Source: an uncultured Desulfohalobiaceae bacterium
GTDB taxonomy: Bacteria; Desulfobacterota; Desulfovibrionia; Desulfovibrionales; Desulfothermaceae
Length of the DNA: 48,693 bases
Assembly (NCBI GenBank): GCA_964446205.1
Contig: CAYUNZ010000002.1
Coordinates: forward strand, 1 to 48,693
Direction of reading: 5' to 3'
The notes beneath the pieces were generated by a model. The model searched no databases. It was not told the DNA's origin and saw only the letters and a program-made list of their open reading frames with translations. Position 1 is the first letter of the stretch. Every line of letters starts with the position of its first letter. The position numbers and the translations under genes were made by a program. Shown piece by piece: positions 5,083-45,995 of this stretch.

Positions 5083-5159
5083 ATGGAATGGACAATATAC
5101 CCTTTACTTTTTTGGGACAATAAATGATTTAGGCCAAAATAGATAAGAAATTAGCAAGG

Positions 5160-6027: not shown

Positions 6028-6041
6028 TTTTAGTACAAACA

Positions 6042-6077
6042 CATATGTTCTAGTAGGTACAACGAAGGATGAAAGAA
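6042..6077 (-). repeat. Solo tail module of the heptamer-array repeat
   Basis: The reverse complement TTCTTTCATCCTTCGTTGTACCTACTAGAACATATG matches the tails of copies A and B (TTTCATGCTTCGTTGTACTCGGCTAGGGTCAT). No adjacent array belongs to it. Confidence 0.6.
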
Positions 6078-6156
6078 TATAATATGCATTAGCTAAGCTA
6101 AATCTTCTATTCCAGCATTTCATGCAGTTTATTTCATGTCTTACAGATTTCTTAAA

Positions 6157-6262
6157 CCCTGACCGTTCACCGTAGTCTGTTGAGCTTTTATTGAAGGAAT
6201 TTCTTCAGTCTTTTTTCATACGGTTCACTGTCCACGGATAACGGTTCACGTTCTTTATACTG
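6157..6262 (+). repeat. Heptamer-array intergenic repeat, copy D (short, diverged, forward)
   Basis: Left units CCTGACC GTTCACC GTAGTCT (6158-6178). Right array GGTTCAC TGTCCAC GGATAAC GGTTCAC (6222-6249), followed by GTTCTTTATAC. Lacks the conserved A/B/C core. Confidence 0.65.
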
Positions 6263-6310
6263 GCTGTTTATTGTTATTTAAAAAAACAATTAAAAAAGGA
6301 GTGAACGAGA

Positions 6311-28844: not shown

Positions 28845-29702
28845 ATGAGCAATATTGAGGTTCTGCAAAAAATTAGAAATATTCGGGAACTACCGGCACT
28901 ACCAGCCGTGGCCAGCAAGGTCCTGGAAATTGCCAGTGATCAGGATTCAACAGCCAAAGAGCTAAGTAAGGTCATATCCCAGGATCAATCATTGACCACC
29001 AGGACATTGAAATTGGTTAATTCAGCCTATTACGGATTTCCCCGGACAGTTAGTAAAATAACCGAAGCTGTAGTTATCCTTGGTTTTAATACTGTCAAGA
29101 ACTTAGCCTTATCTGTCTCTGTCTGTAACTTTTTTGGTGGTGGTCAAGGTGATTTTGACCGGAAACGACTTTGGGAACATTCGGTTGGTGCTGCGGTTGC
29201 TGCTACCATACTGGCCAAAAAGGCTATGATGAAATCCTTTATTGAGGATCTTTTTGTAAGTGGTCTACTACACGACATTGGTCTTATTATTGAAGATCAA
29301 TATTTCCATGAGCAGTTTTTACAGGCCCTTGCTATGTCAGAAAACAAAAATATACCTATTGAAATAGCCGAAAGAGACATACTTGGTATAGATCATGCTA
29401 TGATTGGTAAAAAGATTGGCGAGACATGGAAGCTGCCATCAAAGATCAATAATATTATTGGCTTCCATCATCAACCGCAGTATGCCAATGGGGAAACCAA
29501 AAAAGAGACCTCTGTTATTTATATTGCTGATCTTGTTTGTAAGTTACAGGGATTTGGCTTTGATGGTGACCAGGTAGTCCCGACTCTGAGAAAAGAGCCA
29601 TTTACTGTTCTAGGTATCTCTAAGGAAGAGTTGAAAGAGATAACCAAAGAGTTTGAGGTAGATATTGAAAAAGCCCAAGACTTTCTTGAACTTATCAGGT
29701 AA
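28845..29702 (+). CDS. HDOD domain signalling protein
   Basis: 285 aa. Has the N-terminal LPALPAVASKVLEI motif and an HD-like GLLHDIGL motif, both typical of HDOD. Confidence 0.8.
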   Translation: MSNIEVLQKIRNIRELPALPAVASKVLEIASDQDSTAKELSKVISQDQSLTTRTLKLVNSAYYGFPRTVSKITEAVVILGFNTVKNLALSVSVCNFFGGGQGDFDRKRLWEHSVGAAVAATILAKKAMMKSFIEDLFVSGLLHDIGLIIEDQYFHEQFLQALAMSENKNIPIEIAERDILGIDHAMIGKKIGETWKLPSKINNIIGFHHQPQYANGETKKETSVIYIADLVCKLQGFGFDGDQVVPTLRKEPFTVLGISKEELKEITKEFEVDIEKAQDFLELIR

Positions 29703-29707
29703 CAAAC

Positions 29708-31492
29708 ATGAATGATGCCTTAGATAGATTGATAGACAACTTAGAATTTAAGGATGAGCTAGATAGTAATCAACCCATAGAAATATCTTCATACAATATA
29801 GATATCTGTGCCTACATAAAGGAAATCTTTGAAAAAGTGTCCATGTCTGTTGATATAGAAGCTACCTTGAACATTGTCATGGATATCCTCAATGAATATT
29901 TGTCGCCAGAAAAGAGTTTTGTACTGCCTGTTGGCGGAGATATCATTCTAGAAAGAAATTTGAGTTCTTTCTCAAATGATTATGTAAAGAGATTAGAAAA
30001 TGAAGGTGTTCTTGATTGGGTCCAGGTAGAAGGTAAACAAACATTTAAGCTAGTTGGAGATCGCAAGGTAGCAGTAGCCCCTTTGAATAGTGAATCCAAT
30101 TTTTTGGGATTTCTTATTCTTGTATTCAATGATCTTGAAATTACACCAAAATTGACGGATTTTGTTTATATATCCTCTCAGATCTTTTCGGTCTTTTTTT
30201 CCAAAAAGGCTATTTATCGGGAGTTGATTGAAAAAAGTGATAACCTGGAGGTCAAGGTATCTGAGATAAAAGGGCTTTATCAGGAGTTATTGATTGTACA
30301 TGAGTTTGTTAATCAGGTTGGTTCAATATTTGATGAGCATAGACTGTTTGTCAAATTAATAGATATGTGTAGCCGGGCTTTGGATATTGATCAAGGCTTT
30401 GTACTACACTATGACCAAAAAAACTTTCAAATGCAGGTCACAGTTGATACAAATACAAATCTAATTGGTAAAGACATTGATCCGACTGATTATATAAGTT
30501 TTTTCAACCAGGACAATCAGGTGGTCAGTTCCAAACAGGTTGACCTTTCTGCTCTGAAAAGAAGCTTACAATTACAATCTATATTTGCAGCTCCGGTTTT
30601 TCTGGACAATAGCCTCTATGCTCTTGTGATTTTGAGTGAACGTAAGACTAACAAACCATATTCAGAACAGGATGAGAGAATACTGCTGTCCTTGACCAGA
30701 CAAGCAGGTAACAGTCTATACAACATAAGACTGCATGAGCATCTTATTGAAAAAGAAAAAATCGACAGAGATCTCGAGTTGGCCAGTAATATACAGCTAA
30801 GCCTGTTACCCAAACAGCCTCCCCAGATGGAAGGTCTTGACATTGATACATTTTTCAAGCCTGTAAAGCAGGTTGGTGGTGACTATTACGATTTTTATCA
30901 AACAGATAATTATACTTCCTGGTTCTTTATCGGTGATGTTTCTGGTAAGGGTATATCTGCAGCCATACTTATGGCCACCTTGCGAAGCATGTTGAAATCT
31001 GAAATGAGAAAGTCAGGAGATAACCCGGGTTATCTCCTGACTGGTTTAAACAATTTGTTGTGCCCAGACATATATGAAGGCAAGTTCATCACCTTTTTAG
31101 CTGGGGAACTAGATATCCAAAGAGAAAGGATCGTTTTTTCCAATGCTGGTCATCTGCCCATGCTGATATATAGAAGGCAAGAGGACCTTGTTGAGTCCTT
31201 CCAGGCCATGGAAATGCCCCTGGGCATAACAGACAAACTCATTTATCCCTCACAAATCATCTATTTTAAAAAGGGTGATATTTTGCTTCTTTATACCGAC
31301 GGAATAAATGAGGCCAAGAATGTCCAAAAAGAGGAGTTTGGCTTGGACAGGCTAACCCAATTATTAAAGGAAGCTAGCAGGGATCATTCCCAAAAGATAA
31401 TTCAAGATATTCTTAAGGCAGTAAGAGATTTTACCGGGGATATACCTCAATATGATGATCTAAGCTTGATGGTGATCAAAAGAGATAAATGA
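29708..31492 (+). CDS. GAF-domain PP2C (SpoIIE/RsbU-type) serine phosphatase
   Basis: 594 aa. The C-terminal PP2C/SpoIIE motifs are GGDYYDF, IGDVSGKGISAA, LYTDGINE and DDLSLMVI. The N-terminal region contains GAF-like segments. Confidence 0.8.
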   Translation: MNDALDRLIDNLEFKDELDSNQPIEISSYNIDICAYIKEIFEKVSMSVDIEATLNIVMDILNEYLSPEKSFVLPVGGDIILERNLSSFSNDYVKRLENEGVLDWVQVEGKQTFKLVGDRKVAVAPLNSESNFLGFLILVFNDLEITPKLTDFVYISSQIFSVFFSKKAIYRELIEKSDNLEVKVSEIKGLYQELLIVHEFVNQVGSIFDEHRLFVKLIDMCSRALDIDQGFVLHYDQKNFQMQVTVDTNTNLIGKDIDPTDYISFFNQDNQVVSSKQVDLSALKRSLQLQSIFAAPVFLDNSLYALVILSERKTNKPYSEQDERILLSLTRQAGNSLYNIRLHEHLIEKEKIDRDLELASNIQLSLLPKQPPQMEGLDIDTFFKPVKQVGGDYYDFYQTDNYTSWFFIGDVSGKGISAAILMATLRSMLKSEMRKSGDNPGYLLTGLNNLLCPDIYEGKFITFLAGELDIQRERIVFSNAGHLPMLIYRRQEDLVESFQAMEMPLGITDKLIYPSQIIYFKKGDILLLYTDGINEAKNVQKEEFGLDRLTQLLKEASRDHSQKIIQDILKAVRDFTGDIPQYDDLSLMVIKRDK

Positions 31493-31574
31493 TGCCTATA
31501 CACAAAAGGTTTGGAGGCGGTCAATCGCTTTTTGGGTTAAAGTTAAGGTAAACAACACCCCAGTTTGCCATGGA

Positions 31575-33146
31575 TTACTTTATAGCAGTCTGATTGTTGC
31601 CAATCTCATCACTTATAAAACAAAAGACTTGTTTAATGTGTCCATGCTCGTTGTATTCTGTAGTGGCAGACAGATTAACATCCAAGACTTGACCTGATCT
31701 GGTTAGCATCTGAATGCCAATTTTTTTTATCCAACCTTGCTCATAAAATGCTGGTAAAATCTCCTCAATCATATTTTCCCTTGAATCAGGGGATAAAAAA
31801 TCAAGAAAAGGTTTGCCAATAACTTCTCCTCTATTGTAGTCCAACTTTTCCAGCCAACAGTCACTAACTGTTATCATTCTGCCATGAGAATCTACAGATT
31901 GGAGCATGGCCGGTGTCTTATTATAGAGGATACGATGTTTTTCCTCGCTTTCTTTCAAAACCCTTTTTATCATTCTTTGTTTGGTTACGTCAGAACTTGT
32001 CCCAATGGCTCGAATCGGCTGCTGGGATATATCTCTCTCAAAAACCATAACCCGATCACGGATCCATTTGTAAGATCTGTCTCTACAGAGGATGCGGTGC
32101 TCACAGTCACAAAAATCTGTCTCTCCTTGTAAATGAGACTGCAGTTTTTCCAAGGTTTGTCTATAATCATTGGGATGGATTCTGGATTTCCATTCAGATA
32201 TGTGATCATCAAGCTCTTGTTCTGTATAACCGATCATCTCCTTCCAATGTCTGGAGAAGAAGACCTGGCCGGTAAGAATATTCCAGTCCCAGACCCCCTC
32301 TTGCGAGACTTTGAGAGCAAATTTCCATCTAAGTTCGCTCTCTGCTAAGACCTGTCTTGTATTTTCAAGCCTAGTGACGTTAAAACCAAAACGTATGATT
32401 CGAAAGACTTTTTGGTGTGTATCCAGGATAGGTACACTGCGCATCAGCCATTTTTGTCCATCAGAGGACTCAAAGTAGTGTTCCTCCTGAACCTCCTTGC
32501 TTAGCATGGCCTGCTTTACAGTGCATCTCTGACACGGTTTTTTAGCCCCTAACAAGGCCTGATAACATTTTTTGTTTACAATATTGTCGAATTCAGTCTT
32601 AAACTCTTTGGCAAGTCTGTGATTCATCCAAAGGATATTCATCTGGCTATCTAAGGAGATGACAATTGTCTCATAAAGGTTGTTTAAAATAGTTCTTTGC
32701 TCGCTCTCTATTTTTTGTAGCTTTTGTTGGAGTTGTTTTCGTCTTTGGATCTCATCACGTAATCGACGGGTCAATTCTTCTAACTCTTTAGATCTGTGGA
32801 TCATTTTTTTGGTCAAAGAATCCATCTCCTCGTCACCATTACTTTTCTGGTTTTCCAAATAATAGAGATAGTTGATGAATTGATTTGGGTTATCCTTGAT
32901 CATACGAACAATACGGTCCGGCAGCTTACCGCTAAGGGCCAAAAGGACATCGGAATTTTCATCTAATTGTCTGGCCAGGGCCAAAATCCTACTTTCACTC
33001 AGTGGGGTATGTTCACCTCTTTCCAGTTTGCTCAGATAGGAATGGTGCAGACCAACTCTTTTGGCCATACTGCGAATGGAATAGCCTGTATGCTTAGACT
33101 GCAGCTCTTGTCGCCGTTTTTTTACGTATTCTCCAAGTATTTTCAT
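31575..33146 (-). CDS. XRE-family HTH transcriptional regulator with coiled coil and multiple PAS domains
   Basis: 523 aa. N-terminal HTH_3 (YSIRSMAKRVGLHHSYLSKLERGEH), followed by a coiled coil and about three PAS-like repeats. Confidence 0.75.
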   Translation of the reverse strand: MKILGEYVKKRRQELQSKHTGYSIRSMAKRVGLHHSYLSKLERGEHTPLSESRILALARQLDENSDVLLALSGKLPDRIVRMIKDNPNQFINYLYYLENQKSNGDEEMDSLTKKMIHRSKELEELTRRLRDEIQRRKQLQQKLQKIESEQRTILNNLYETIVISLDSQMNILWMNHRLAKEFKTEFDNIVNKKCYQALLGAKKPCQRCTVKQAMLSKEVQEEHYFESSDGQKWLMRSVPILDTHQKVFRIIRFGFNVTRLENTRQVLAESELRWKFALKVSQEGVWDWNILTGQVFFSRHWKEMIGYTEQELDDHISEWKSRIHPNDYRQTLEKLQSHLQGETDFCDCEHRILCRDRSYKWIRDRVMVFERDISQQPIRAIGTSSDVTKQRMIKRVLKESEEKHRILYNKTPAMLQSVDSHGRMITVSDCWLEKLDYNRGEVIGKPFLDFLSPDSRENMIEEILPAFYEQGWIKKIGIQMLTRSGQVLDVNLSATTEYNEHGHIKQVFCFISDEIGNNQTAIK

Positions 33147-33265: not shown

Positions 33266-35191
33266 ATGAAATATATACCTCTTCAGAAAGTTGTTGATGT
33301 ATTATCCCAAAAGTTTCATCAAGAGCTACCTTCTGAATCAGAAACCCAAGAGGAAAACTCAAATCAGAGTGGCCTTTTTTGTCGTCAATGGGCTGAAAGC
33401 TTGAGCACAATGTCTCAAGATCTGTTGCAGTTTTTTGCGGATAAAGAGGAGCATTTTTTGGCTCTTGGTTCTCTTATTCAGGAGGGATATAAAGAGTCAA
33501 AAGATTTGTCTGCCTCCTCAAATCATTTAGTCAATCAAGTCAATAATGAAGATCAAAGTCAGATTATAAGAGGACTCAATCAAAAAGTACATGAAATTGA
33601 AAACTATTGGCAGGTATTTCATCCTGAAACTATTTGGAATCGGCTTAATCTACTCCACAATGTGACTTTAGATCTTGCTTCCTTATTGAGTCGCTTTGAA
33701 CGAATTGTTTTACGGCTCAAAGTCTTGTCAGTATCTACTCGTGTAGAAACGGCCAGATTGGGTCAAGAGGGAGAAGGCTTTGGCATTCTGGCACAGGATG
33801 TGAGTACATTGAATCTTCAAGCTGATGATGAAACCCAGAAGATTAAGGAAAAGACCCAATCGGTCCAGGAAGATATTCAGGTCGCTTGTCAAAAGACAGA
33901 AGTCTTGTCCCAGGAACAAGATATCGATGCACAAAATCTTATGCAGGAGATTAAACAAGGTTTGTCTCAACTAGATGATCTTCAAGGACTATCTTCACAA
34001 CTAATTGATAAGCTTTCCAGTCATACAGAGTTGATAACTGATAAGATCGGAGAAATTGTTTCCAAGATCCAATTTCATGATATTACAAGACAGCAGATTC
34101 AACATGTTAGTGAGGTTATGAATGAAGTCAAAAATGAAGTTAAGGATCATGATTACAGCCAAGAAAATTCAGAGGAAGACATAGAAATACTTTCCTGGAT
34201 TACCGATGTCTGTAAATTACAAATATCTCATATAGATGCCTCTAAAGAAGGTTTTTCTCAGGCCCTATATCATATCCGCAATAGCATAGGAGATATAATA
34301 GAGCAAATCCAAAATATTGTTTCTGATATCCAGCAGATGAGTGGGGATCAAGACGGCCATTCGGTTTTGGAAAAGATTCAGATGGATATGACTAAGGTTG
34401 TTCAGGCCTTGCGAAAGACCTCCGGAAAGTCGGATGAAGTTGTGGAAATAATGAAGGTCGTAGGTGGAGTTGTTCAAGAAATGGGGGTGTTCGTGGAGAA
34501 TATAGAGGAAGTTGGGGTGAGTATTGAACGGATCGGATTGAATGCCAGTGTTCAAGCAGCCCATATTGGAGATAACGGCCGAGCAATGGGGGTTTTGGCC
34601 GAATCTATTCACAGCCTGTCTATTGAGTCTAAAGTACAGACCCGAGAGATTACCAATTCACTGAACAAGATCATTTCTGAATCCGAGCATTTTCAATCTC
34701 AGGCCAGGGAAGCCAATGAGTTGGCTTCTAAAGAAAGTGCCTTGATTTCCGATTTTGAAAGGTTAATCAAGAGCCTTCAGCAGACCCATAATAATATACA
34801 GAGTCATTTGTCATATATTCAGGAAACCTCCAGAAATCTCATTGATAAACTGCAAAAGATAGTTGAAGACAAGGAATTGGAAAATGAGGTATTGGATCGT
34901 TTTGAAGAGGCCAAAAAAGAGATAAGAGAAATAAAGGACATGATGACCCAATATCTCCCTGAGCAGGGAGTTAAGCCCTCAGAAAGGCTCAGGTCCATAC
35001 TGGAAAAATATACTATGGAATCAGAGAGACAGGTCCATATGAAGCTCTTTGAAGAGGAAGAAGATGATATGAACCAGGACAATGTATCTTTTTTTGACAA
35101 TGAAGTGGACGACAATGTGGATCTCTTTGATGAAGATGAAGATGAGCAAAAAGAAAAGGATGCCTTGGGTGACAATGTAGAATTGTTCTAG
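33266..35191 (+). CDS. Soluble coiled-coil MCP-like protein with two signalling-tip-like motifs, a CheZ-like FxD[IL]TxQ motif and an acidic repeat tail
   Basis: No TM segment. LSVSTRVETARLGQEGEGFGILAQDVSTL and IGLNASVQAAHIGDNGRAMGVLAESIHSL each align without gaps to the MCP tip consensus [29 protein letters not shown]. Also carries FHDITRQ and a C-terminal 3x DNVx[FL]F repeat. The start could be the TTG at 33242 or the ATG at 33266. Confidence 0.6.
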   Translation: MKYIPLQKVVDVLSQKFHQELPSESETQEENSNQSGLFCRQWAESLSTMSQDLLQFFADKEEHFLALGSLIQEGYKESKDLSASSNHLVNQVNNEDQSQIIRGLNQKVHEIENYWQVFHPETIWNRLNLLHNVTLDLASLLSRFERIVLRLKVLSVSTRVETARLGQEGEGFGILAQDVSTLNLQADDETQKIKEKTQSVQEDIQVACQKTEVLSQEQDIDAQNLMQEIKQGLSQLDDLQGLSSQLIDKLSSHTELITDKIGEIVSKIQFHDITRQQIQHVSEVMNEVKNEVKDHDYSQENSEEDIEILSWITDVCKLQISHIDASKEGFSQALYHIRNSIGDIIEQIQNIVSDIQQMSGDQDGHSVLEKIQMDMTKVVQALRKTSGKSDEVVEIMKVVGGVVQEMGVFVENIEEVGVSIERIGLNASVQAAHIGDNGRAMGVLAESIHSLSIESKVQTREITNSLNKIISESEHFQSQAREANELASKESALISDFERLIKSLQQTHNNIQSHLSYIQETSRNLIDKLQKIVEDKELENEVLDRFEEAKKEIREIKDMMTQYLPEQGVKPSERLRSILEKYTMESERQVHMKLFEEEEDDMNQDNVSFFDNEVDDNVDLFDEDEDEQKEKDALGDNVELF

Positions 35192-35208: not shown

Positions 35209-35550
35209 ATGAATATCACCAACCCTGATCCTGAAACAAAACGGATTGAACTTCAAGGGGAATGTTCAGTGGAATTTTCTTCTGAGCTTAGTAGTCAACT
35301 CCTTGATGGTTTTAAAAATTATTCTCACTTAGAGCTAAGTCTTAATCAGATTACAGAAGCAGATCTTACTATTATCCAGCTTTTATGTTCTGCTCATAAA
35401 AGCTCTCAATCTGGTAGTAAGGATATTCGAATAGTTGATCAGGTGCCTGATTCTGTAAGTAATACAATGCTTCGGGCTGGTTATTTTTTATGTTGTCAGA
35501 GATGTCCTGTCAAAACATGTTTTCTCAGGGAGGCTTTGTCCGATGAGTAA
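35209..35550 (+). CDS. STAS-domain (anti-sigma-antagonist-like) protein
   Basis: 113 aa with a GGAGGA RBS. Has the STAS-like pattern ELQGECSVEFSSEL...LELSLNQITEADLTIIQLL. Overlaps the cheY start by 8 nt. Confidence 0.6.
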   Translation: MNITNPDPETKRIELQGECSVEFSSELSSQLLDGFKNYSHLELSLNQITEADLTIIQLLCSAHKSSQSGSKDIRIVDQVPDSVSNTMLRAGYFLCCQRCPVKTCFLREALSDE

Positions 35551-35905
35551 GAAAATTATGACTGTGGATGACTCCCCTAGTGTACGTCAAATGGTCAGCT
35601 TTACTTTGCAGGATGCCGGATATGAGGTCGTTGAGGCCTCAGACGGTCAAGATGCTTTAGACAAACTTCAAGGTCAGGTAGATATGATTATTACTGATCT
35701 AAATATGCCCAATATGGATGGTATTGAGCTTATTAAAAATGTCCGGGGGAATGCCGACTATAAGTTTATTCCTATTGTCATGTTGACTACCGAATCTCAG
35801 GATTCCAAGAAAAAAGAAGGCAAGGAAGCCGGAGCTACTGGATGGATTGTCAAGCCTTTTAAGCCGCCACAAATTTTGGGAGTCGTCCAGAAGCTTTTGA
35901 AATAA
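35543..35905 (+). CDS. cheY: Chemotaxis response regulator CheY
   Basis: 120 aa single REC domain with DDS, phospho-acceptor IITDLNMP, and VKPF. Confidence 0.85.
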   Translation: MSKKIMTVDDSPSVRQMVSFTLQDAGYEVVEASDGQDALDKLQGQVDMIITDLNMPNMDGIELIKNVRGNADYKFIPIVMLTTESQDSKKKEGKEAGATGWIVKPFKPPQILGVVQKLLK

Positions 35906-35928
35906 TTTGTTAAGGGTTGGAGGTTATA

Positions 35929-38022
35929 ATGTCCCGAGAAGAGCAAATGAAACAGGCCTTTTTAGAAGAAGCAAGTGATCTTTTGCCTGAATTGGAAGAT
36001 GCCTTGTTATCCCTTGAGGACTCACCACAGGATATAGAATTGATTAATCGGGTTTTTAGGGCCTTACATACCCTGAAAGGTTCAGGTAATATGTTTGGTT
36101 ATGAGAATATTGGCCGTTTGAGTCATGAGATTGAGACCATATTCGACAAGATAAGGAATGATGAACTTGATATTACCAAACAGATTCTTGATGTAACCTT
36201 TCGGACCAAAGATCAGATTCAGCAGATGCTCTACTCTTCTGAGGAGGGTCAGGATTCAATAATAGATAATCTGATTCAAGAGATCAAACATCTAGCTCCA
36301 GGACAGGAGGTCAAGGAAGAGCAAGACATTTCAGAAAATAAGCCCAGCCAGGAATCTGGAGAAAACCTTCGAATATATCGAATCCGATTCAAACCCCCAA
36401 GGGATATCTTTCATACCGGTACAGATCCTCTTAGCCTGCTTAGTGAATTGCAGGAGCTTGGCAGCGCCTATATTGTTGCCCATATAGAAGATCTTCCTGA
36501 TCTGGAAGATATAGAACCTGAAAAATGTTATACTTGGTGGGATATTATCCTTTCTACTGATAAAGACAAGAATGCTATACTTGATGTCTTTATCTTTGTT
36601 GAAGACGATAGTGAAATCACAGTTCAGATTATTGATGAAGGCAGCTATACAGATGAGGAGGAGATTGCCTATAAACGTCTGGGGGAAATACTTGTTGAGA
36701 GAGGTGATTTGAGCCCGACCAGTTTGCAACAGATCCTTTTTAGTAAAAAACCTCTTGGGGAAATACTCACAGATTCAGGGGTGGTCAGTGATGAAACGGT
36801 TCAATCGGCCTTAATGGAACAATCGGCTGTAAGAGAGCGCCGACAGGAAAAGAAACAACAGGAATCTGTCTCAAGCCTCAGAATACCAGCCCAAAAGCTT
36901 GATAAACTTGTTGATCTGGTTGGAGAGCTGGTTATTGCTCAAGCCCGTTTAAGCCAGATTGTCAATACTGTGGAAAATCAAGAAATCCAAGAAATAGCTG
37001 AAGAAGTCGAGAGGCTAAGCAGTGAACTAAGGGATAATACCCTGGGAATCCGTATGTTGCCTATTGGAACTAGCTTTGGCCGCTTCCGACGAGTTGTCCG
37101 GGATCTTTCCTCTGAGTTGGGCAAGGAGATCAATCTAATCACCGAAGGTTCTGAAACTGAGTTGGATAAGACAGTTATTGAGAAATTGAATGATCCACTG
37201 ATCCATCTTTTGCGCAATAGTATCGATCACGGCATAGAAGACCCTGAAGGACGGGAACAAGAAGGAAAACCGCGACAAGGAACGATCACCCTAACTGCTA
37301 TGCATGCCGGAGGAAATGTGGTTATCTCTATCCAGGATGATGGCAAGGGTATAGATCCTGAAATTATGCGTCAAAAGGGTATTGAGAAAGGGATTATCTC
37401 CTTAGAGGCGGAAATGAAAGAAAAAGACCTGATTGGTCTTATTTTCACTCCTGGGTTTTCTACTGCCGAGCAGGTATCTGACCTCTCTGGCCGTGGTGTG
37501 GGCATGGATGTAGTCAAAAACAATATTGAGGCCCTTCGGGGCAGTGTAGAAATCGAGAGCAACAAAGGAGAAGGAACAAGTATTTATGTCAAGCTCCCTT
37601 TGACTCTGGCCATTATAGATGGTCTGCAAGTCCAAATTCAGGATGAGGTCTTTGTCTTGCCTCTGAGCGTGGTCGAGGAGTGTATTGAATTGACCAAGGA
37701 AGAGGCCCAAAAGTCCAAAGAGCAATGTTTTGTCAAGGTCAGGGGCGAAATTGTACCCTATTTGAGTACTAGGGAACTGTTTAGTGTTCCTGGGAAGACA
37801 CCGGATATAGTTCAAGTGGTTATTGTCTCTTCGAATCGTAGTCAGGTTGGTTTGGAAGTTGATCATATTATCGGGCATTACCAGACGGTTATCAAGAGCC
37901 TGAGCAAGGTTTACCGTAATGTCCAGGGGATATCTGGGGCCACTGTCCGTGGGGACGGGAGCATGGCTCTGATCCTTGATGTCGATAATTTGATTCAGAA
38001 GGTGGAAAAGAATATACAGTAA
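35929..38022 (+). CDS. cheA: Chemotaxis histidine kinase CheA
   Basis: Hpt motif HTLKGSG, HATPase boxes (HLLRNSIDHG, DDGKGID, GRGVGMDVV) and a C-terminal CheW-like domain. The ATG at 35929 follows a GGAGG RBS. Confidence 0.9.
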   Translation: MSREEQMKQAFLEEASDLLPELEDALLSLEDSPQDIELINRVFRALHTLKGSGNMFGYENIGRLSHEIETIFDKIRNDELDITKQILDVTFRTKDQIQQMLYSSEEGQDSIIDNLIQEIKHLAPGQEVKEEQDISENKPSQESGENLRIYRIRFKPPRDIFHTGTDPLSLLSELQELGSAYIVAHIEDLPDLEDIEPEKCYTWWDIILSTDKDKNAILDVFIFVEDDSEITVQIIDEGSYTDEEEIAYKRLGEILVERGDLSPTSLQQILFSKKPLGEILTDSGVVSDETVQSALMEQSAVRERRQEKKQQESVSSLRIPAQKLDKLVDLVGELVIAQARLSQIVNTVENQEIQEIAEEVERLSSELRDNTLGIRMLPIGTSFGRFRRVVRDLSSELGKEINLITEGSETELDKTVIEKLNDPLIHLLRNSIDHGIEDPEGREQEGKPRQGTITLTAMHAGGNVVISIQDDGKGIDPEIMRQKGIEKGIISLEAEMKEKDLIGLIFTPGFSTAEQVSDLSGRGVGMDVVKNNIEALRGSVEIESNKGEGTSIYVKLPLTLAIIDGLQVQIQDEVFVLPLSVVEECIELTKEEAQKSKEQCFVKVRGEIVPYLSTRELFSVPGKTPDIVQVVIVSSNRSQVGLEVDHIIGHYQTVIKSLSKVYRNVQGISGATVRGDGSMALILDVDNLIQKVEKNIQ

Positions 38023-38060: not shown

Positions 38061-40958
38061 ATGGTTAACCTGAAAGACATTAAGATGAGGCCAAAGCTAA
38101 TTTTATTGTTCTTACTGATTGGGCTCATACCATTAGCCATTACCGGCTGGTGGTCATCCAGATTGGCAGGTGATTCGCTTATGGATAGCGCCTATAATCA
38201 GCTAAAATCGATGCGAGATGTGAAAAAAAATCAGATCAGCTCTTTTTTTGAAGAGCGGAAAGGGGACACTGATGTCCTTGTAGATACTGTCAATCAAATC
38301 CAGGCTGAGTCCTTTCAAAAGCTGCAAAGTGTTCAACAGCTGAAAAAGAGTCAGATAAAACAATTCTTCAAAAAATTGCACAATGACATCCAAGTCTTGG
38401 CTCAAAGTGAGGATGTAAAAAGAGCTTATTCTGAGCTAAAGCAGTATCACGATGACTTGGGGTTTGGTGCCCAAAGTTCTTTTGATGTAGATACCCCCAG
38501 ATACGAGAGGATCTGGCAGAAATACAGTGATGACCTAGGTAAATATGTGGAGAAGTTTGGTTACTATGATGTCTTTATTATCTGTAAACCGCATGGCCAT
38601 GTCATGTATACCCATTCCCAAGAAGACGATCTGGGGACAAATCTTGGCTATGGACCATACAGGGAGGAAGGACTGGCCAGACTTTGGGAAAAGGTTGTTC
38701 GACAGAAATCGTTTGTCATTGAAGATTATTCTGCTTATAGCCCCAGCGGTGGAAAGCAAGAGGCGTTTGTCGGTGGGCCGATCAAAAATAATGCCGGGAA
38801 AATGGTTGCTGTGGTTGCCCTTCAGATATCTAGTCAGTCTATCAATGATATTGTCCAGCAAAGACAGGGTTTGGGTAAGACAGGGGAGACCTATCTGGCA
38901 ACTGAGCAAAACGGTCGGATAGAGTTTAGGAGCAATCTACAGACTATGGGCGATGGTAATTTTGTTATTGGCAAGGATGTTACGGATATTGCTCCGGCTT
39001 ATCTTGAAGAAACCTTGTCTGGCAAACAGGTTTTGGATGTCTATACCGATTCAGCCGGAAATCCAGTCATGGTCACAGGGAGTATGTTCAATGTTGGCAG
39101 TGGGATTAAATGGGCCATGATTACCAAACAAAATTTAGAGGAGGCCTTGACCTTTACAGAGAAAAAGGGCCAGGAGGACTACTTTACCAAATATATCAAA
39201 TCTTATGGCTACTATGATCTGTTTCTTATCAATAAAAAGGGTTATGTCTTTTACACTGTTGGTAAAGAAGCCGATTACCATACCAACATGCTCGAAGGTA
39301 AATACTCTGATTCCAATCTGGGCAAACTGACCAGAAAGGTACTGCGGACCAAGAGCTATGCCATGGCTGATTTTGCTTCCTATGCCCCAAGTGGAGGTAA
39401 ACCTGCCTCATTTGTTGCCAGGCCGCTTATACATAACAATAAAGTGGAAATGGTGGTTGCCCTGCAGCTCAGCCTACAGGATATCAATAACATTATGCAG
39501 GAACGGACCGGTATGGGCGAGAGCGGGGAGACATATCTGGTCGGACCTGACAAGCTGATGCGTTCGGATTCCTTCCTGGCTACGCAGAGTCACTCGGTAG
39601 AGGCCTCCTTTGCCGGAACTGTTCAGCAAAACGGGGTCGACACTGTAGCCTCCAGACAAGCCTTGAATGGTAAGACAGATGCTCAGATTATAGACGACTA
39701 TAATGGGAATCCGGTCCTATCGGCTTATACTCCGGTCAATGTCGGTAAAAATCTCAAGTGGGCCTTGATTTCGGAAATAAACGAAGCAGAGGTAAATCAA
39801 CCAATTGATGATTTGATTATGTCTATAGTCATTGTGGCTATTGTCATTATAATTGCTGTTATTCTGGTAGCCTTGTTTGTGGCCAATATGGTCGCCAAGC
39901 CCTTAAATGAGGGGGTCTCATTTGCCGGAACCGTAGCCAAAGGGGATTTAACAGCCATTCTGGAAGTTGATCAAAAGGACGAGATCGGTATGCTGGCTGA
40001 TGCCCTGAGGGATATGGTTAAGAACTTGCAGAAGGTGGTCAAGGATGTCCAGTCAGCTTCGGACAACGTGGCCTCCGGATCAGAGGAGATGAGTTCCTCT
40101 TCAGAAGAATTGTCTCAGGGAGCTACCGAGCAGGCCTCTAATATCGAAGAGGTATCCTCGAGTATGGAACAGATGGCCTCGAACATCCAGCAAAACACAG
40201 ACAACGCCCAGGAGACGGAGAAGATCTCCAATAAGGCTGCCCAGGATGCTGAGGCAGGCGGCAAGTCAGTCAATGATACTGTTCAGGCTATGAAAGACAT
40301 TGCCGACAAGATCTCTATTATTGAGGAGATCGCCAGACAGACCAATCTTTTGGCCCTAAATGCAGCCATTGAGGCGGCTAGAGCAGGCGAGGCCGGAAAG
40401 GGTTTTGCCGTAGTAGCGGCCGAGGTCCGCAAGCTGGCTGAAAGAAGCGGTGGAGCGGCCAAAGAGATCCGGGAGCTGTCCTCCTCCAGTGTAGAGGTGG
40501 CTGAACAGGCAGGTCAGATGCTGAACAAAATGGTCCCAGATATCCAAAAGACAGCCGAGTTGGTTCAAGAAATAGCTGCAGCCAGCCGGGAACAGAATAG
40601 CGGGGCTGAGCAGGTAAACAAAGCGGTCCAGCAGTTGGATCAGGTCATACAGCAAAATGCCACAGCCTCTGAAGAGCTGTCATCGACAGCAGAGGAGCTG
40701 TCTTCTCAGGCCCAGCAACTCCAGGATACCATGTCCTTTTTCAAGATAGATGAAGAAAAGTCTTTTCGGGGTAAATCAGTAGAGAAAATCAAAAAGGAAG
40801 GTGGTGGTCAGGCTGTTTCCAAGGACAATAAGAAGGCCTTGGGTCAGACTCAGAACAAGCAGGAGAAAGCAGAAAATAAGGAACAAGGCAAACAGAAACG
40901 TTTGTCCCTGGATATGAATTCAGAGGATCAGGAAGACCAGGAATTTGAGAGATATTAA
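38061..40958 (+). CDS. Methyl-accepting chemotaxis protein with a large periplasmic double Cache-like sensor, HAMP and signalling domain
   Basis: 965 aa. TM1 is at the N-terminus and TM2 is [20 protein letters not shown]. Has a canonical tip [37 protein letters not shown], a long K/E/Q-rich C-terminal linker, and ends in EFERY. Confidence 0.9.
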
Positions 40959-41075
40959 CATAAAAGAATGTTTACCGTTGTCCGTTTACCGTTTACCGAA
41001 GAATAAAATTAATTGAACTTCTTCGTTTTTTTGTTTTTTGGTTGACGGTCGACGGTAAACGGTGAACATTTTAAA
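40957..41075 (+). repeat. Heptamer-array repeat, copy F (short, forward) between mcp and cheW
   Basis: AACATAAAAGAATG, then GTTTACC GTTGTCC GTTTACC GTTTACC (40970-40997). An inner hairpin plus T-run follows, then GGTTGAC GGTCGAC GGTAAAC GGTGAAC (41040-41067) and ATTTTAAAG. Confidence 0.75.
40997..41039 (+). terminator. Possible intrinsic terminator/attenuator inside repeat copy F
   Basis: CGAAGAA (40997-41003) pairs with TTCTTCG (41019-41025) in a 7-bp stem with a 15-nt loop, followed by TTTTTTTGTTTTTT (41026-41039). The stem is AU-rich and the loop is large, so this is weak. Confidence 0.3.
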
Positions 41076-41117
41076 GAGTTAGAGAAGATATTCATATTAA
41101 CCAAGAAAGGAGCGCGT

Positions 41118-41633
41118 ATGTCAGATACGACAGATACAATGTCCAACCAATATTTGACATTTAAGCTTGATGGCGATTTTTATGCCTTGAGTATAGCCTC
41201 GGTTAAAGAGGTTTTGGAATATATGCAAATTACCAGGGTTCCCAGAACTCAGGAATATATGAGGGGGGTGATAAACGTCAGGGGCAATGCAGTCCCGGTA
41301 GTTGATTTAAAGCTAAAGTTTGGCATGGACAAGACTGAGCAGACCTTGGATACCTGTATTGTTATTGTGGAGGTAGATCTTGATGGCGAGTTCACAACTA
41401 TAGGGGCAATGGTTGACGGAGTGGAGGAGGTCCTAGAGATAGACCCGAGCAAGATTGAGCCGCCGCCCAAGTTAGGTACCAAGATCCATTCCAAATTTAT
41501 GAAAGGCATTGGCAAGCTAGAGGAGCAGTTTGTGATCATTTTGAATGCTGATCAGCTATTTACCATTGAGGAGCTAGATGTCTTGTCTGAGGTCAAAGAA
41601 TCCGGTGCTACATTCGATATGGAAGAGAAATAA
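41118..41633 (+). CDS. cheW: Chemotaxis coupling protein CheW
   Basis: 171 aa with an AAGGAG RBS. CheW-like domain pattern: YLTFKLDGDFYALSIASVKEV...VINVRGNAVPVVDL. Confidence 0.9.
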   Translation: MSDTTDTMSNQYLTFKLDGDFYALSIASVKEVLEYMQITRVPRTQEYMRGVINVRGNAVPVVDLKLKFGMDKTEQTLDTCIVIVEVDLDGEFTTIGAMVDGVEEVLEIDPSKIEPPPKLGTKIHSKFMKGIGKLEEQFVIILNADQLFTIEELDVLSEVKESGATFDMEEK

Positions 41634-41966
41634 TAACTGTTAGTCTTGATGAAGTAATCCATAAATGGTTAAGATTAATGCACTATTGAAGCTTTTAACC
41701 GGCGATTGCCTCTCTCTTGCTATTGTTGTTTAGCTATTTGAAAAGAATTATATTTTTTTGTATTAGTTTGGTCCAATGAAAAAAAGGGGCTTTCTTTTGA
41801 ACTTATGTTTTTAAGCCTATAATTTCTAATCTCATCCAGTTAAAATTCTGCTTTATCACTGAAAAATTCAAAATAAGCCCCTTTTTCAAATAGTTGCAAA
41901 CGGCTAAACAGTTATCTTCTTGGTAAAAGGGATTTGAGTAGGCAGTCGCCCTTTTAAAAGGGTGCC

Positions 41967-42839
41967 ATGAACAAAAATAGACAAAGTGAAGATAGAGATA
42001 GGTCTTGGAATCAAGCCAAACCAATGACTACAAAGGAGTTTCAGCGCTTTAGCAGTTTTATTCAAGAGGAATTTGGCATTAAAATGCCGCCGGGTAAGAA
42101 GACCATGCTTGAATCACGTCTTGGAAAAAGACTTAGGGCCTTAGGTATGAACAGCTACAAAGATTATGAAAACTATCTCTTCAATATAAAAGGGATGGAG
42201 ATAGAAATACCTCATCTGATTGATGCTGTGACTACAAACAAGACAGATTTTTTCCGGGAAGCAAATCATTTTGATATCTTATACAATCAACTCCTGCCAA
42301 AATGGTTTGGCCAGCATAAAGGAAAGCGAGACTTTTCGGTCTGGAGTGCGGGTTGTTCTTCTGGTGAAGAGCCTTATACTTTGGCCATAGTCCTAAATGA
42401 ATTTGCAGAGAACAACCCAGATTTTAAATATAATATACTAGGTACTGATATATCAAATGAAATTCTGGAGAAGGCTCAACGGGCTGTATACCCTGAAGAC
42501 CGGATAGAGCCTGTACCCGCCAATTTGAAACGGAAATATTTCTTACGCAGCAAGGATCGTAAAAAGAAGTTGGTTCGAGTCGTGCCTGAGCTGCGCAAAA
42601 AAGTCGCCTTTAGGCTCCTGAATTTTATGGATGATTTTGATTTTCGGGAGAAGATGGATGCAATATTTTGTCGTAATGTAATCATCTACTTTGAAAAACC
42701 AATACAGGAACGTCTCTTTCAAAAATTTTGTGAACATTTGCATCCAAACGGTTATTTATTTATTGGTCATTCCGAAACTCTGGCCGGGATGAATCTTTCT
42801 CTCAAGCAATTGTCTCCGACAACATATCAGAAAGTATAA
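41967..42839 (+). CDS. cheR: Chemotaxis protein methyltransferase CheR
   Basis: TDFFRE motif and SAM-binding WSAGCSSGEEPYTLA. The ATG at 42024 (MTTKEFQRF) is an alternative start. Confidence 0.85.
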   Translation: MNKNRQSEDRDRSWNQAKPMTTKEFQRFSSFIQEEFGIKMPPGKKTMLESRLGKRLRALGMNSYKDYENYLFNIKGMEIEIPHLIDAVTTNKTDFFREANHFDILYNQLLPKWFGQHKGKRDFSVWSAGCSSGEEPYTLAIVLNEFAENNPDFKYNILGTDISNEILEKAQRAVYPEDRIEPVPANLKRKYFLRSKDRKKKLVRVVPELRKKVAFRLLNFMDDFDFREKMDAIFCRNVIIYFEKPIQERLFQKFCEHLHPNGYLFIGHSETLAGMNLSLKQLSPTTYQKV

Positions 42840-42879
42840 AATATCTATTGGAAACCTTTTACTTTTTTACAGGTGTATC

Positions 42880-43308
42880 TTGAATAAAAAAAATAATGAC
42901 TTACCAAAGATACTTATTGTTGAGGACAGTACCTCAGCTCAGCGCAGACTGATCTCTACCTTACAGGCTTATGCCAAATGTTATGTATCCGGAAATGGTC
43001 AGGAAGCCATTGATTTTGTTCAGTCGATATGTGATGAACAAGAACAATTCGACTGTATATTCATGGATATCATCATGCCGATAAAAGACGGCCTGTCAGC
43101 TGTTAAAGAGATACGAAAGTTGGAGAGGGACAAGAATATTTTTAGTAAGCAAAAAATAAAGATAGTGATTGTCTCTACGCTTAAAGATCCAAAGGAAATT
43201 CTTCTGGCTCAATACGAATGCCAAGCTGACGGCTATATTACCAAACCATACGCCAGATCATCAGTTCTTGAAACACTAAAAGATCTCGGGCTAGATATCT
43301 GTGTATAG
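42880..43308 (+). CDS. Single-domain response regulator (CheY-like REC)
   Basis: 142 aa, TTG start. REC motifs ILIVEDS, FMDIIMP and YITKPY. Confidence 0.75.
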   Translation: MNKKNNDLPKILIVEDSTSAQRRLISTLQAYAKCYVSGNGQEAIDFVQSICDEQEQFDCIFMDIIMPIKDGLSAVKEIRKLERDKNIFSKQKIKIVIVSTLKDPKEILLAQYECQADGYITKPYARSSVLETLKDLGLDICV

Positions 43309-43423
43309 TAAGCATAAACTGGTGCTGACGTTCACATCTCATGTCCATTTTCATGCTGTATTGTGCCCGTCTGGTTGATAAACAACTAAACTCTTATAAT
43401 ATATAAGCAAGCCGGAGTGAATC

Positions 43424-43945
43424 TTGAAGGATGCTTTGCCACTGATTTATTTAAAACAAGGTGAATATTTTGTCTCCAACGGAAAACCCTTAGGAGTGAG
43501 TACTATCCTTGGTTCTTGTGTATCTGTAACCTTTTACTGCCCATCAAAACAAATCGGGGCTATTACCCACGCCATTCTGCCTAGTCAGAAAGATCACTAT
43601 CGCCATAGTAAAGATTCAGACGGACGTTTTGTTGACAGCAGTATTGAATGTGTTGTCAGACAATTAAATTCACTTGAGATAGATATAAAGGAAGTGGAGG
43701 TTAAAGTCTTTGGGGGATCTCAGATGTATGGTCCCAGGACCGGAGAAAAGAAGCAAACCTTAAATATTGGCAGGAAGAATGTTGAAGCTGCTTTATTGAC
43801 TCTGCAGAACTTAGGGCTAAGGATCAGGGTTAGTGAGGTTGGAGGCAATCAAGGCAGAAAGGTTTTGTATTATCCGCATAAAGGTGAGGTCTGGATAAAG
43901 AGGATAGCTCGAAGTCTTAACCAACAAGAGGTAAACCATGACTAA
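43424..43945 (+). CDS. cheD: Chemoreceptor glutamine deamidase CheD
   Basis: 173 aa, TTG start after a GGAGTG RBS. Has the catalytic-Cys motif LGSCVSV and KVFGG. Confidence 0.8.
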
Positions 43946-45023
43946 AAAAATACGGGTGCTGATTGTTGATGATTCAGCTATGGTCAGGCAGGCACTACAG
44001 GATGTGCTTGAAAGTGATCCAGAGATTGAAGTTATGGGTGCAGCGTCGGATCCTTTTGTGGCCGCCAGAAAGATGGAAGAGGAAATCCCTGACGTTATTA
44101 CCTTGGATGTGGAAATGCCTAAGATGGATGGAATCACTTTCCTGCGTAAGATTATGACCCAGCACCCAATACCTGTAGTCATTTGTTCAACTTTGACAGA
44201 CAAAGGCTCGGAGTTGACTCTGAAGGCTATGGATTATGGTGCAGTTGAGATAATAACCAAACCCAAGTTAGGGACCAAAAAGTTTTTTGAGGAGTCAAAG
44301 GTCAAGATAGTTGATGCAGTCAAAGCAGCGGCAAAGGCTGATCTAAAAAAGAAAAAAAATCAGTTGCCTCCCAAAAAAAATTATAAGGTGGAACCAAAAT
44401 TAAGCGCAGACGCGGTCATACCAGATAGCAAGCCGTCCAGATCAATATTTCAAACGACTGAGAAAGTAGTTGTAGTTGGAGCCTCAACAGGTGGCACGGA
44501 AGCTTTGTGGACCTTATTGAAGTCAATGCCTCAGGATTCACCAGGTATTGTTATTGTTCAGCATATGCCAGAGCATTTTACCAGTGCCTTTGCCAAGAGA
44601 TTGAATGATAATTGCCAAATTAATGTCAAAGAGGCCGTAGACGGGGATCCGATACTTCGTGGTCAGGCCTTGATCGCCCAAGGTAATAGGCATTTACTGT
44701 TACATAGAAGTGGGGCTAGATATCAGGTCCAGATAAAAGATGGTCCTCTTGTCTCCAGACACAGGCCTTCAGTAGATGTCTTGTTCAGGTCAACTGCCAG
44801 ATATGCCGGGAAAAATGCACTAGGGGTTATTATGACCGGGATGGGAGATGATGGAGGCCATGGGATGAAAGAGATGCATGAAGCCGGGGCCTTTAATATT
44901 GCTCAGGATGAGAGCAGCTGTGTTGTTTTCGGTATGCCTAAAGAGGCGATTGAACTTGGGGGTGTTGACTTGATACTACCTCTTAACAAGATCGCCCGGG
45001 AGATACAGGACCGCGTAAAATAA
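43938..45023 (+). CDS. cheB: Chemotaxis response regulator protein-glutamate methylesterase CheB
   Basis: 361 aa. N-terminal REC (VLIVDDS, TLDVEMP) plus a methylesterase domain ([19 protein letters not shown]). Overlaps the cheD stop by 8 nt. Confidence 0.9.
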
Positions 45024-45169
45024 TATCTACGACTGCTACTTTTGGAGATAGGTGCAATTATATTGGAATGAATTACATAAGTTGACAAATTAGACCAAAC
45101 ATATGAGCATACTGAGTATCTTTTTATGTGCTGAGAGAAAGACAATAGATGGGTTAAAGAGGAGGATAC

Positions 45170-45565
45170 ATGAAGACACTCATTGTGGAAGATGAGTTTT
45201 CAAGCCGGAAAATATTAGAAAAGTTTCTTGGTAAATATGGAAAATATGAGGTTGCAGTTAATGGACAAGAAGCAATAGATTCATTCCAAATGGCTTGGGA
45301 AGAAAAGGAGCCTTATGATCTTGTAGTGTTGGATATCATGATGCCCAATGTTGATGGTCAGGAAGCTTTAAAGCAAATCAGGGCTTATGAAAAGGACAAA
45401 GGTGTTGTTGGTTTTGGTGAGGTCAAGGTTATTATGGTAACTGCTTTAGATGATCCGAAAAATGTGGTTGAAGCCTTTTATGAAGGCGGGGCAAATTCTT
45501 ATCTGGTCAAGCCGATTGATAATGAACAGTTAAATCAGGAATTAAAGAATCTTGGCTTGATTTGA
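45170..45565 (+). CDS. Single-domain response regulator (CheY-like REC)
   Basis: 131 aa with an AGAGGAGG RBS. REC motifs LIVEDE, VVLDIMMP and YLVKP. Confidence 0.8.
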   Translation: MKTLIVEDEFSSRKILEKFLGKYGKYEVAVNGQEAIDSFQMAWEEKEPYDLVVLDIMMPNVDGQEALKQIRAYEKDKGVVGFGEVKVIMVTALDDPKNVVEAFYEGGANSYLVKPIDNEQLNQELKNLGLI

Positions 45566-45632
45566 GTATACTCTGTTCTTTTTGCAGGCTTATCTAATGG
45601 AGTATATATGAGTAATTTAAGGTTAAATAAAT

Positions 45633-45995
45633 ATGGTGGATAATCAACAAATTTTTGAACGAGAGCAAGTAATACAAAGACTTGGGGATGAAGAGGTCTT
45701 TAAAGAAATTATTTCTGTTTTTCTGGAAACCTGCCCCCAATATATGATTCAATTAGAGGAAGCTATACAGGCTAAAGAATTGTCGGATGCACAAAAAGCC
45801 GTCCATAAGCTTAAAGGGGCAGCAAGCAATGTTGGTTCTGATCTAGTTAGAGACAATGCCCTTTCTGTTGAACAAGCTATTGAAAAGCAAGACTATACTT
45901 CCATTTTTTCGAGATTTTCTGATCTGAAAGAAAACACCCAGGCCTTACAAGATATCTTGGTACAAGAACTTGAGAAAAATCAAAACAAGACTTAG
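45633..45995 (+). CDS. Hpt-domain phosphotransfer protein
   Basis: 120 aa with the Hpt motif HKLKGAASNVG. Confidence 0.75.
   Translation: MVDNQQIFEREQVIQRLGDEEVFKEIISVFLETCPQYMIQLEEAIQAKELSDAQKAVHKLKGAASNVGSDLVRDNALSVEQAIEKQDYTSIFSRFSDLKENTQALQDILVQELEKNQNKT

Follow-up and report, generated by a model that had tools for sequence, protein, structure and literature searches.

The closest precedents for the protein described here are the CheY-P phosphatase CheZ, the DXXXQ protein CheT and the double chemoreceptor DosM. Canonical CheZ (PF04344) has been described for Proteobacteria (PMC7750401). CheT of Sinorhizobium meliloti / Atu0522 is a DXXXQ protein outside the CheZ family that dephosphorylates one CheY (Agbekudzi et al. 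2024, as cited in PMC12654446); it is predicted to have a CheZ-like fold and also binds CheR (PMC12654446). Its gene closes an alpha-proteobacterial operon that opens with a soluble methyl-accepting chemotaxis protein (MCP), cheS (encoding a STAS protein), cheY1 and cheA, with cheD and cheT further on, and in which CheS binds CheA (PMC12654446). DosM (VC1403) is soluble, has two tandem MCP signalling domains and no sensory domain, occurs together with a triple CheW and bridges two baseplates as an extended rod (PMC9321776, PMC7534058).

Our study concerns a gene, called gene X below, in a stretch of 48,693 nucleotides (the window) from an uncultured Desulfohalobiaceae bacterium (contig CAYUNZ010000002.1, positions 1 to 48,693). 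X encodes a soluble protein with two MCP-type signalling hairpins in one chain, an invariant motif in the pattern and register of the CheZ active site, and a conserved acidic C-terminal peptide. An MCP hairpin, a double signalling domain and a DXXXQ motif are each known, but their combination in one widespread syntenic family appears to be undescribed; the motif of X was found in no paper of the literature searched, and the names on record for its members are only 'methyl-accepting chemotaxis protein' or 'hypothetical protein'. Our best hypothesis, tentatively held and unproven, is that X is an array-docked CheY-P phosphatase on a receptor-derived scaffold, acting through D272 and Q276.

The receptor hairpins of X

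Gene X, which has an alternative TTG start at 33242, and the parts mapped on its protein (in amino acids, aa) are as follows.

33266..35191, plus strand: gene X, a 641-aa soluble protein with two chemoreceptor-type hairpins (open reading frame (ORF), translation, Pfam MCPsignal, homologues)
33383..34147, plus strand: hairpin 1, a diverged copy of the MCP signalling hairpin, ~aa 40-294 (hhalign against cluster MCPs, AlphaFold2 and Foldseek)
33443..33478, plus strand: helix-1 motif TExDFLxIGxKL, aa 60-71, predicted packing partner of the CheZ-like motif (conservation, weak covariation)
33725..33811, plus strand: tip 1, aa 154-182, family consensus TRIETARLGxxGxxFxxLAxDVxxLA (E161 invariant; 11/29 against the MCP tip consensus)
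34064..34108, plus strand: CheZ-like motif S-x-Q-F-H-D-I-T-R-Q-Q-x-E-H-V, aa 267-281, with candidate catalytic residues D272 and Q276 (conservation, CheZ register)
34148..34168, plus strand: variable loop between hairpins 1 and 2, aa 295-301 (non-helical in the AlphaFold2 model; length varies in the alignment)
34169..34948, plus strand: hairpin 2, a near-canonical MCP signalling domain, ~aa 302-561, with LQxxQL at aa 318-323 (profile against PDB, hhalign)
34532..34618, plus strand: tip 2, aa 423-451, family consensus IALNAxIxAAHIGxxGxxLxVLA (N426 invariant; A431, G435, G438 and L441 at least 90% conserved)
35009..35038, plus strand: C-terminal helix motif YTMxxERxxH, aa 582-591 (76/85 locus-encoded members; predicted local distance difference test score, pLDDT, ~93)
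35051..35188, plus strand: disordered acidic tail with three DNVx[FL]F copies at 35078-35095, 35111-35128 and 35171-35188 (pLDDT <50)

Full-length X scored 63.1 bits against Pfam MCPsignal (PF00015; cutoff 34.6) in two stretches, the best at aa 388-533. A preliminary description, made from the sequence alone, had read two segments of X as MCP tips, with 11/29 and 12/29 identities to the tip consensus, in a protein devoid of a transmembrane segment. No such segment was indicated in our analysis either, the highest 19-residue Kyte-Doolittle mean being 1.53. Tip 1 (LSVSTRVETARLGQEGEGFGILAQDVSTL) indeed shares 11/29 residues with the quoted consensus, and tip 2 (IGLNASVQAAHIGDNGRAMGVLAESIHSL) was counted as 11/29 rather than 12/29; none of 2000 shuffles of the X protein reached 12/29 once or 11/29 twice. 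The reading of both segments as tips was borne out by profile comparison. The N-terminal half (aa 40-300) aligned with the C-terminal half (aa 300-600) in hhalign at 98.1% probability (E 9e-14), tip 1 falling on tip 2, and both halves aligned tip to tip with a set of 46 canonical MCPs from related clusters (95.8% probability, E 7.5e-9, for the N-half; 98.3%, E 1.2e-14, for the C-half). When the family profile was run against PDB sequences, only the C-half was clearly matched (2ch7, E 1e-21), which indicates that the first copy is the more diverged. These comparisons identify X as a tandem internal duplication of the MCP signalling hairpin. An MCP has one hairpin per chain and builds its four-helix bundle as a homodimer; X has two per chain.

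Structure prediction points the same way. The AlphaFold2 model of the full-length protein, computed from a 62-sequence alignment, is all-helical (pLDDT 85, predicted template modelling score, pTM, 0.69), with the chemoreceptor domain 2ch7_A as its best Foldseek match and chemoreceptor chains recurring among the top matches. For a model of aa 36-300 alone, each of the 14 best Foldseek matches was a chemoreceptor chain, with E from 1e-6 to 5e-4 for the first 13, and this model fits a Tsr tip fragment of 102 residues (6s1k_E), with 97 columns superposed at 1.2 A and a TMt of 0.89. The DSSP line of the AlphaFold2 model, in which helices run unbroken through both tips, had been taken as evidence against hairpins, a reading overturned by the Tsr superposition: the expected hairpin is present at tip 1, and the DSSP summary just misses the break at tight turns. 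The arm lengths also fit hairpins (~45-166 and 172-294 for hairpin 1, 302-436 and 440-561 for hairpin 2).

Hairpin 1 modelled alone gave a pTM of 0.45 and an arm pLDDT of ~77-85, compared with ~90 within the full chain. This higher full-chain confidence suggests that AlphaFold packs both hairpins side by side as a single-chain four-helix bundle, which is consistent with the single-chain pseudo-dimer that had been considered possible. Mean-field direct coupling analysis of 138 sequences (Neff 113) gave its best antiparallel diagonals at i+j = 337-340 within hairpin 1 and at i+j = 602-606 between the hairpins, both with z ~2; the top raw pairs were alignment artefacts in linkers. The diagonal at i+j ~338, a weak signal, would put the helix-1 motif opposite aa 267-278.

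X belongs to a large family, present in several hundred species of anaerobes. The homology search gave 67 relatives, full-length or partial, at 18-61% identity and for the most part 570-700 aa long; a scan of one genome per GTDB species yielded 421 confirmed X loci. In Thermodesulfobacteriota these lie in Desulfovibrionales, Geobacter, Trichlorobacter, Syntrophobacter, Syntrophorhabdus and Syntrophus; the other hosts are Nitrospirota, Planctomycetota (Kuenenia), Bacteroidota/Ignavibacteria, Vulcanimicrobiota, Synergistia and Bacteriovoracaceae. Outside the CheZ-like motif, the 62-sequence alignment has E61, E161 in tip 1, N426 in tip 2 and the C-terminal Phe invariant, and at least 90% conservation of F64, L65, G68, Q319, Q322, L323, tip-2 residues, Y582-T583-M584, E587, R588, H591 and N637-V638-E639. 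The methylation consensus [ASTG][ASTG]xx[EQ][EQ]xx[ASTG][ASTG] does not occur in 123 of 138 members, and no position of such a site is conserved. Neighbouring cluster MCPs average 3.5 of these sites and most often end in EFE[KR][FY].

X shares with canonical cytoplasmic chemoreceptors (IcpA/Atu0514, TM14) its solubility and an MCPsignal score above the Pfam threshold, and like that of IcpA/Atu0514 its gene opens a che operon, ahead of STAS-cheY-cheA (PMC8466855, PMC12654446). It differs from them in having neither a sensor domain nor methylation consensus sites, in its two hairpins per chain and in its divergent tip residues. Orthology with IcpA/Atu0514 was considered and rejected because the latter is a protoglobin-HAMP-36H protein (PMC8466855); X is thus a positional analogue of it, not an orthologue.

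The CheZ-like motif and the tail peptide

The D-x3-Q motif is the most conserved element of the X family. The preliminary description had matched FHDITRQ (aa 270-276, nt 34073-34093) to the CheZ active-site pattern, and the match has held: the Asp/Gln pair is nearly invariant among homologues, and Pfam CheZ aligns with the motif in the catalytic register. In the 62-sequence alignment Q269, H271, D272, R275 and Q276 are invariant and F270, I273, T274, E279 and H280 at least 90% conserved, and QFHDITRQ is present in 84 of 85 further ORFs. The CheZ pattern places Asp and Gln at i/i+4 within A-x-x-F-Q-D-x-x-x-Q; X has the same spacing within S-x-Q-F-H-D-I-T-R-Q.

Segments of 76 residues spanning the motif were taken from 32 members and run singly against Pfam (E up to 10); 17 matched CheZ, with a best E of 1.2e-5, and any other family was matched by at most two members. 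E. coli CheZ mapped on the same profile gives F270=F141, D272=D143, I273=L144, T274=T145 and Q276=Q147. An hhalign comparison with a deep CheZ profile of 136 diverse representatives, which replaced an earlier enterobacterial-only set (>=79% identity), again gave this register in its top alignment (P 0.0014), at an HH-suite probability of only 17%. Canonical cluster MCPs showed no similarity to CheZ (E 0.2). A minority of genuine CheZ proteins, among representatives P0194-P0341, read FHDLTGQ instead of FQDLTGQ, so that the position before the catalytic Asp tolerates His and the invariant His of X is compatible with CheZ. A precomputed CheZ annotation is attached to one 120-aa gene fragment of an X homologue, and a motif-profile search of a large protein database returned four gene fragments only.

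The similarity is short. Full-length X had no match to Pfam CheZ at E up to 1, and CheZ was not detected with motif-only fragments of 30 and 41 residues. A CheZ-like domain of ~60 residues was considered and dropped, since motif masking, alignment reversal and heptad-block shuffles show that the flanks add little. Of the two Pfam families looked for in X, MCPsignal is clearly present and CheZ stays below threshold, with no detectable similarity beyond ~10 residues. As judged from these comparisons, X carries an invariant motif of ~10 residues with the CheZ active-site pattern and register, on a helical hairpin, and not a detectable CheZ domain.

The motif is probably exposed. Ungapped extension of the MCP alignment lets Q276-Q277 fall on the MCP methylation-site Glu pair, and since CheR and CheB must reach methylation sites, this position should be solvent-exposed and accessible to partners. 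A heptad reading would likewise put Q269, D272, Q276 and E279 on one outer stripe, with R275 beside the invariant E61 of helix 1.

The second conserved element is the C-terminal peptide. The last 46 residues of X are 48% Asp/Glu and include DNVSFF (aa 605-610), DNVDLF (aa 616-621) and DNVELF (aa 636-641). The acidic tail with three repeats is therefore present as first described, and its terminal DNVELF is nearly invariant, ~80 of 85 further ORFs ending in [DE]N[VI][ED]LF-COOH; the number three is specific to the lineage. Fifteen members have 2-8 tandem copies and most have the terminal copy only, so internal copies are a lineage feature (0 to 7 extra) and only the terminal one is universal. 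Four to eight tandem DNVELF copies with G/D-rich spacers occur in Desulfomicrobium, Desulfonatronum and Vulcanimicrobiota (loci L007 1282-3276, L029 9876-12011, L011, L014 and L045); by their sequence, these tails look like a multivalent array of short linear motifs.

The chemosensory cluster around X

The genes downstream of X in the window are the following.

35209..35550, plus strand: STAS-domain protein, positionally like alpha-proteobacterial CheS (Pfam STAS_2, E 3e-7)
35543..35905, plus strand: CheY-type single-domain response regulator, the presumed substrate (Pfam Response_reg, E 1.9e-28)
35917..38022, plus strand: CheA histidine kinase (Pfam Hpt, H-kinase_dim, HATPase_c and CheW domains)
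38061..45995, plus strand: rest of the operon, namely a HAMP-MCP (EFERY end), CheW, CheR, a response regulator, CheD, CheB, a second response regulator and Hpt (Pfam)

The position of X directly upstream of STAS-cheY-cheA, already reported in the preliminary description, was confirmed in the window and is largely kept elsewhere. Among 72 related loci with enough downstream sequence, 56 have X followed by a STAS gene or STAS-sized ORF, a ~120-aa receiver and CheA, and 10 have X followed by the receiver and CheA without an intervening STAS gene, so that cheY-cheA lies immediately downstream in 66 of the 72, usually with MCP, CheW, CheR, CheD and CheB next. Pfam scans found no CheZ, CheC or CheX encoded in the window's chemosensory cluster. 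Its CheW is a single-domain protein of 171 aa, and its HAMP-MCP (38061-40958; 965 aa, ending EFERY) fits the class-34H pentapeptide type described for Geobacter. X loci resemble the 'type 2 E. coli-like' clusters of Geobacter, with 34H MCPs ending in EFEKF (PMC2577667), and also the ancestral F7 order STAS-cheY-cheA...cheR-cheD-cheB (PMC7184735). The operon layout and the DXXXQ motif likewise recall CheT, with which X was compared by motif and operon layout. CheT is, however, a protein without receptor tips, in the review's account, encoded at the operon end; in X the DXXXQ motif lies inside a receptor-like protein at the operon head.

Some loci have additional or different genes. In Syntrophorhabdus aromaticivorans (L027 7553-9777) the X homologue is directly preceded by two CheX-like genes of 157 aa, identical to each other and each with a 124-aa receiver gene in front of it; ...GELTNIISGQ... 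is part of the CheX-like sequence. An F9-like locus (L004 599-11803) encodes an MCP, a 627-aa CheW, CheB, a HEAT protein, CheR, a receiver, STAS, CheY and CheA, and it nonetheless includes an X homologue with a hemerythrin gene behind it; X is thus not confined to one cluster type. Genes of ~200 aa resembling metallo-beta-lactamase/ODP proteins lie between cheR and the MCP gene in several loci (L002 514-1110, L036 15309-15959, L049 6406-7002), and hemerythrin genes follow cheA or X in L003, L004 and L069; the products may be iron or oxygen sensing inputs.

Directly upstream of X (28845-33146) the window encodes an HDOD protein and a GAF-PP2C (SpoIIE-type) phosphatase, as well as a helix-turn-helix protein with three PAS domains, the last on the minus strand; the PP2C could be the partner-switching counterpart of the STAS protein. 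At 3739-6310, dnaA (3739-5082, minus strand) is followed by ~1.2 kb without an annotated gene, ahead of formate-tetrahydrofolate ligase (6311); the gene-free stretch beside dnaA could be a replication origin. The GC content of the window is 41.8%. Its other genes, which include those for an aldehyde:ferredoxin oxidoreductase, for Hdr-like CCG proteins and for a branched-chain amino acid ABC transporter, are in keeping with an anaerobic host.

Possible roles of X

In the hypothesis proposed above, X is a cytoplasmic, non-methylated chemoreceptor derivative that arose by tandem duplication of an MCP signalling hairpin and most likely folds as a single-chain four-helix bundle, imitating a receptor dimer with two non-identical tips. 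The tips would dock into the CheA/CheW array of the adjoining chemosensory system, and the outer face of helix 2, near the tip-distal end, would display the invariant CheZ-type D-x3-Q site. The disordered acidic linker ends in one to eight DNVELF copies, a peptide that may capture CheY or CheY-P released by the neighbouring CheA, after which Gln276 and Asp272 would speed hydrolysis of the aspartyl phosphate in the manner of CheZ and CheT. Capture and hydrolysis beside CheA would thereby co-localise kinase and phosphatase. X and CheZ have several features in common. Each is a helical-hairpin bundle and bears F-[QH]-D-[LI]-T-x-Q, in the same register, towards the open end of a hairpin, on its second helix; in each, a disordered linker leads to an acidic C-terminal peptide whose last residue is Phe; and each is encoded beside cheY.

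X differs from CheZ in that it is three times longer, derives from two MCP signalling hairpins with receptor tips, and is found in Thermodesulfobacteriota, Nitrospirota, Planctomycetota, Bacteroidota and other phyla. A number of observations weigh against the phosphatase hypothesis. All 17 CheZ matches lie below the Pfam gathering score (at most ~25 bits against 30.7), the alignment register is lost when nine motif columns are masked, and heptad-block shuffles that keep the motif mostly intact score 23.3 on average (sd 3.4), 19 of 120 reaching at least the real 26.7. The CheZ similarity is thus that of the motif alone and may be convergent or coincidental. CheZ was absent from PDB sequence searches with the whole-family and 76-residue motif profiles (E up to 10; no 1KMI-type chains) and from the 50 best Foldseek matches listed for the full X model, and covariation is too weak to fix the fold of X. 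The invariant Arg275 sits where CheZ has the conserved Gly146, immediately before the catalytic Gln; all CheZ motif variants tallied from the 136 sequences read DLTGQ there. The hydrophobic-x-x-[IV]-T-x-Q part of the pattern also resembles the generic motif of MCP methylation helices. The tail, which had been likened to the CheY-docking peptide at the CheZ C-terminus, differs from it in sequence (consensus EDLGDNVELF against QVDDLLxSLGF, with DNVELF in place of DDLLxSLGF) and shares only position, acidity and the terminal Phe. CheX adjoins X in some loci (L027, Syntrophorhabdus), and the two extra receivers and the Hpt of the window could act as a phosphate sink, so that other routes of signal termination exist in some of these systems.

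The limited extent of the CheZ similarity would also suit a non-catalytic, DosM-like pseudo-receptor that stabilises or tunes the CheA/CheW lattice, the motif and the cluster of conserved residues in the head serving as a docking surface for the STAS/CheS-like protein or a CheA domain. Like DosM, which spans two baseplates (PMC7534058, PMC9321776), X carries a pair of signalling hairpins, and it is soluble without methylation sites; a STAS gene follows it in 56 of the 72 loci, CheS binding CheA in S. meliloti (PMC12654446); and the related F9-like locus has a 627-aa CheW. That locus is, however, the only one among those examined with such a CheW; most loci, the window included, have a single-domain CheW and not the triple CheW that marks F9. 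In the ten loci without STAS between X and cheY, the X-cheY-cheA order is kept nonetheless, and a docking surface would not be expected to copy the CheZ D-x3-Q register so invariantly. Tip 1 is moreover far more degenerate than tip 2, unlike in a receptor binding two baseplates equally, and X further departs from DosM in its strongly diverged N-terminal copy, its invariant D-x3-Q motif, its conserved tail peptide and, as AlphaFold confidence suggests, hairpins folded side by side. We consider this DosM-like role unlikely, though it deserves to be kept in mind. The same motif can be read as an H-box of the HisKA_3 type (H-D-x3-Q), with His271 as phospho-acceptor in a DHp-like bundle at the helix 2/3 junction, engaged in phosphotransfer or as a phosphate sink. 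HisKA_3 kinases and CheZ share the DxxxQ phosphatase motif, and H271 is invariant, directly precedes D-x3-Q and lies ~23 residues before a helix-loop-helix junction. An ATP-binding domain is missing from X, though, and genuine CheZ also tolerates His at this position; the Pfam families listed for the 32 scanned motif segments (E up to 10) do not include HisKA_3, against 17 matches to CheZ, and we rejected this reading as very improbable.

X could alternatively be a cytoplasmic sensor in which the invariant polar residues gathered far from the tips (E61, H271, D272, R275, E279, H280, Q319, Q322, Y582, E587, R588 and H591) bind a metal or small ligand in the four-helix head and pass a signal to the tips. 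Three His and several carboxylates are conserved among them, in helices predicted at the same level, several related clusters contain hemerythrin or ODP-like genes, and X stands in the operon where alpha-proteobacteria have the soluble sensor receptor IcpA/Atu0514 (PMC8466855). Known metal-site spacings were nevertheless not found in X (neither an ExxH pair nor a hemerythrin pattern), the heptad analysis would place D272, Q276 and E279 on the outer face and not in the core, a sensing receptor would normally retain the methylation sites that X lacks, and the conserved terminal peptide is left unexplained; sensing is in our view improbable. That peptide is the starting point of another proposal, in which DNVELF tethers CheR, CheB or CheD in the way of the NWETF pentapeptide and X is a scaffold for adaptation assistance. 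It lies on a flexible linker, ends in an aromatic residue and sometimes occurs in multiple copies, CheR, CheB and CheD are co-encoded with X, and a complex of CheR with CheT, the DXXXQ protein of S. meliloti, has been reported (PMC12654446). But NVELF has Val at position 2, where the rule for CheR/CheB-tethering pentapeptides, x-[WFY]-x-x-[FWY], has an aromatic (xWxxF or x[FY]xx[FY], PMC2577667), the cluster's own MCPs already bear EFE[KR][FY] pentapeptides, and X is linked most tightly to cheY-cheA and not to cheR or cheB, which makes a tether distinctly improbable.

For many non-proteobacterial and delta-type chemosensory systems no CheY-P phosphatase has been recognised; the genomes of Geobacter, which lack cheZ, are an example (PMC2577667). 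It is possible, though we advance it with much caution, that X is the missing terminator of the STAS-cheY-cheA systems of Thermodesulfobacteriota, Nitrospirota, Planctomycetota and Bacteroidota, as a phosphatase embedded in the lattice that mimics a receptor dimer with two specialised tips and removes CheY-P where it arises, through a CheZ-type Asp/Gln site supplied by multivalent capture on DNVELF peptides. X might then be an evolutionary link between receptor hairpins and CheZ. If this proposal is true, it would reveal a new mode of kinase/phosphatase co-localisation through a single-chain receptor mimic, and would represent another independent use of D-x3-Q after CheZ, CheT and the HisKA_3 kinases.

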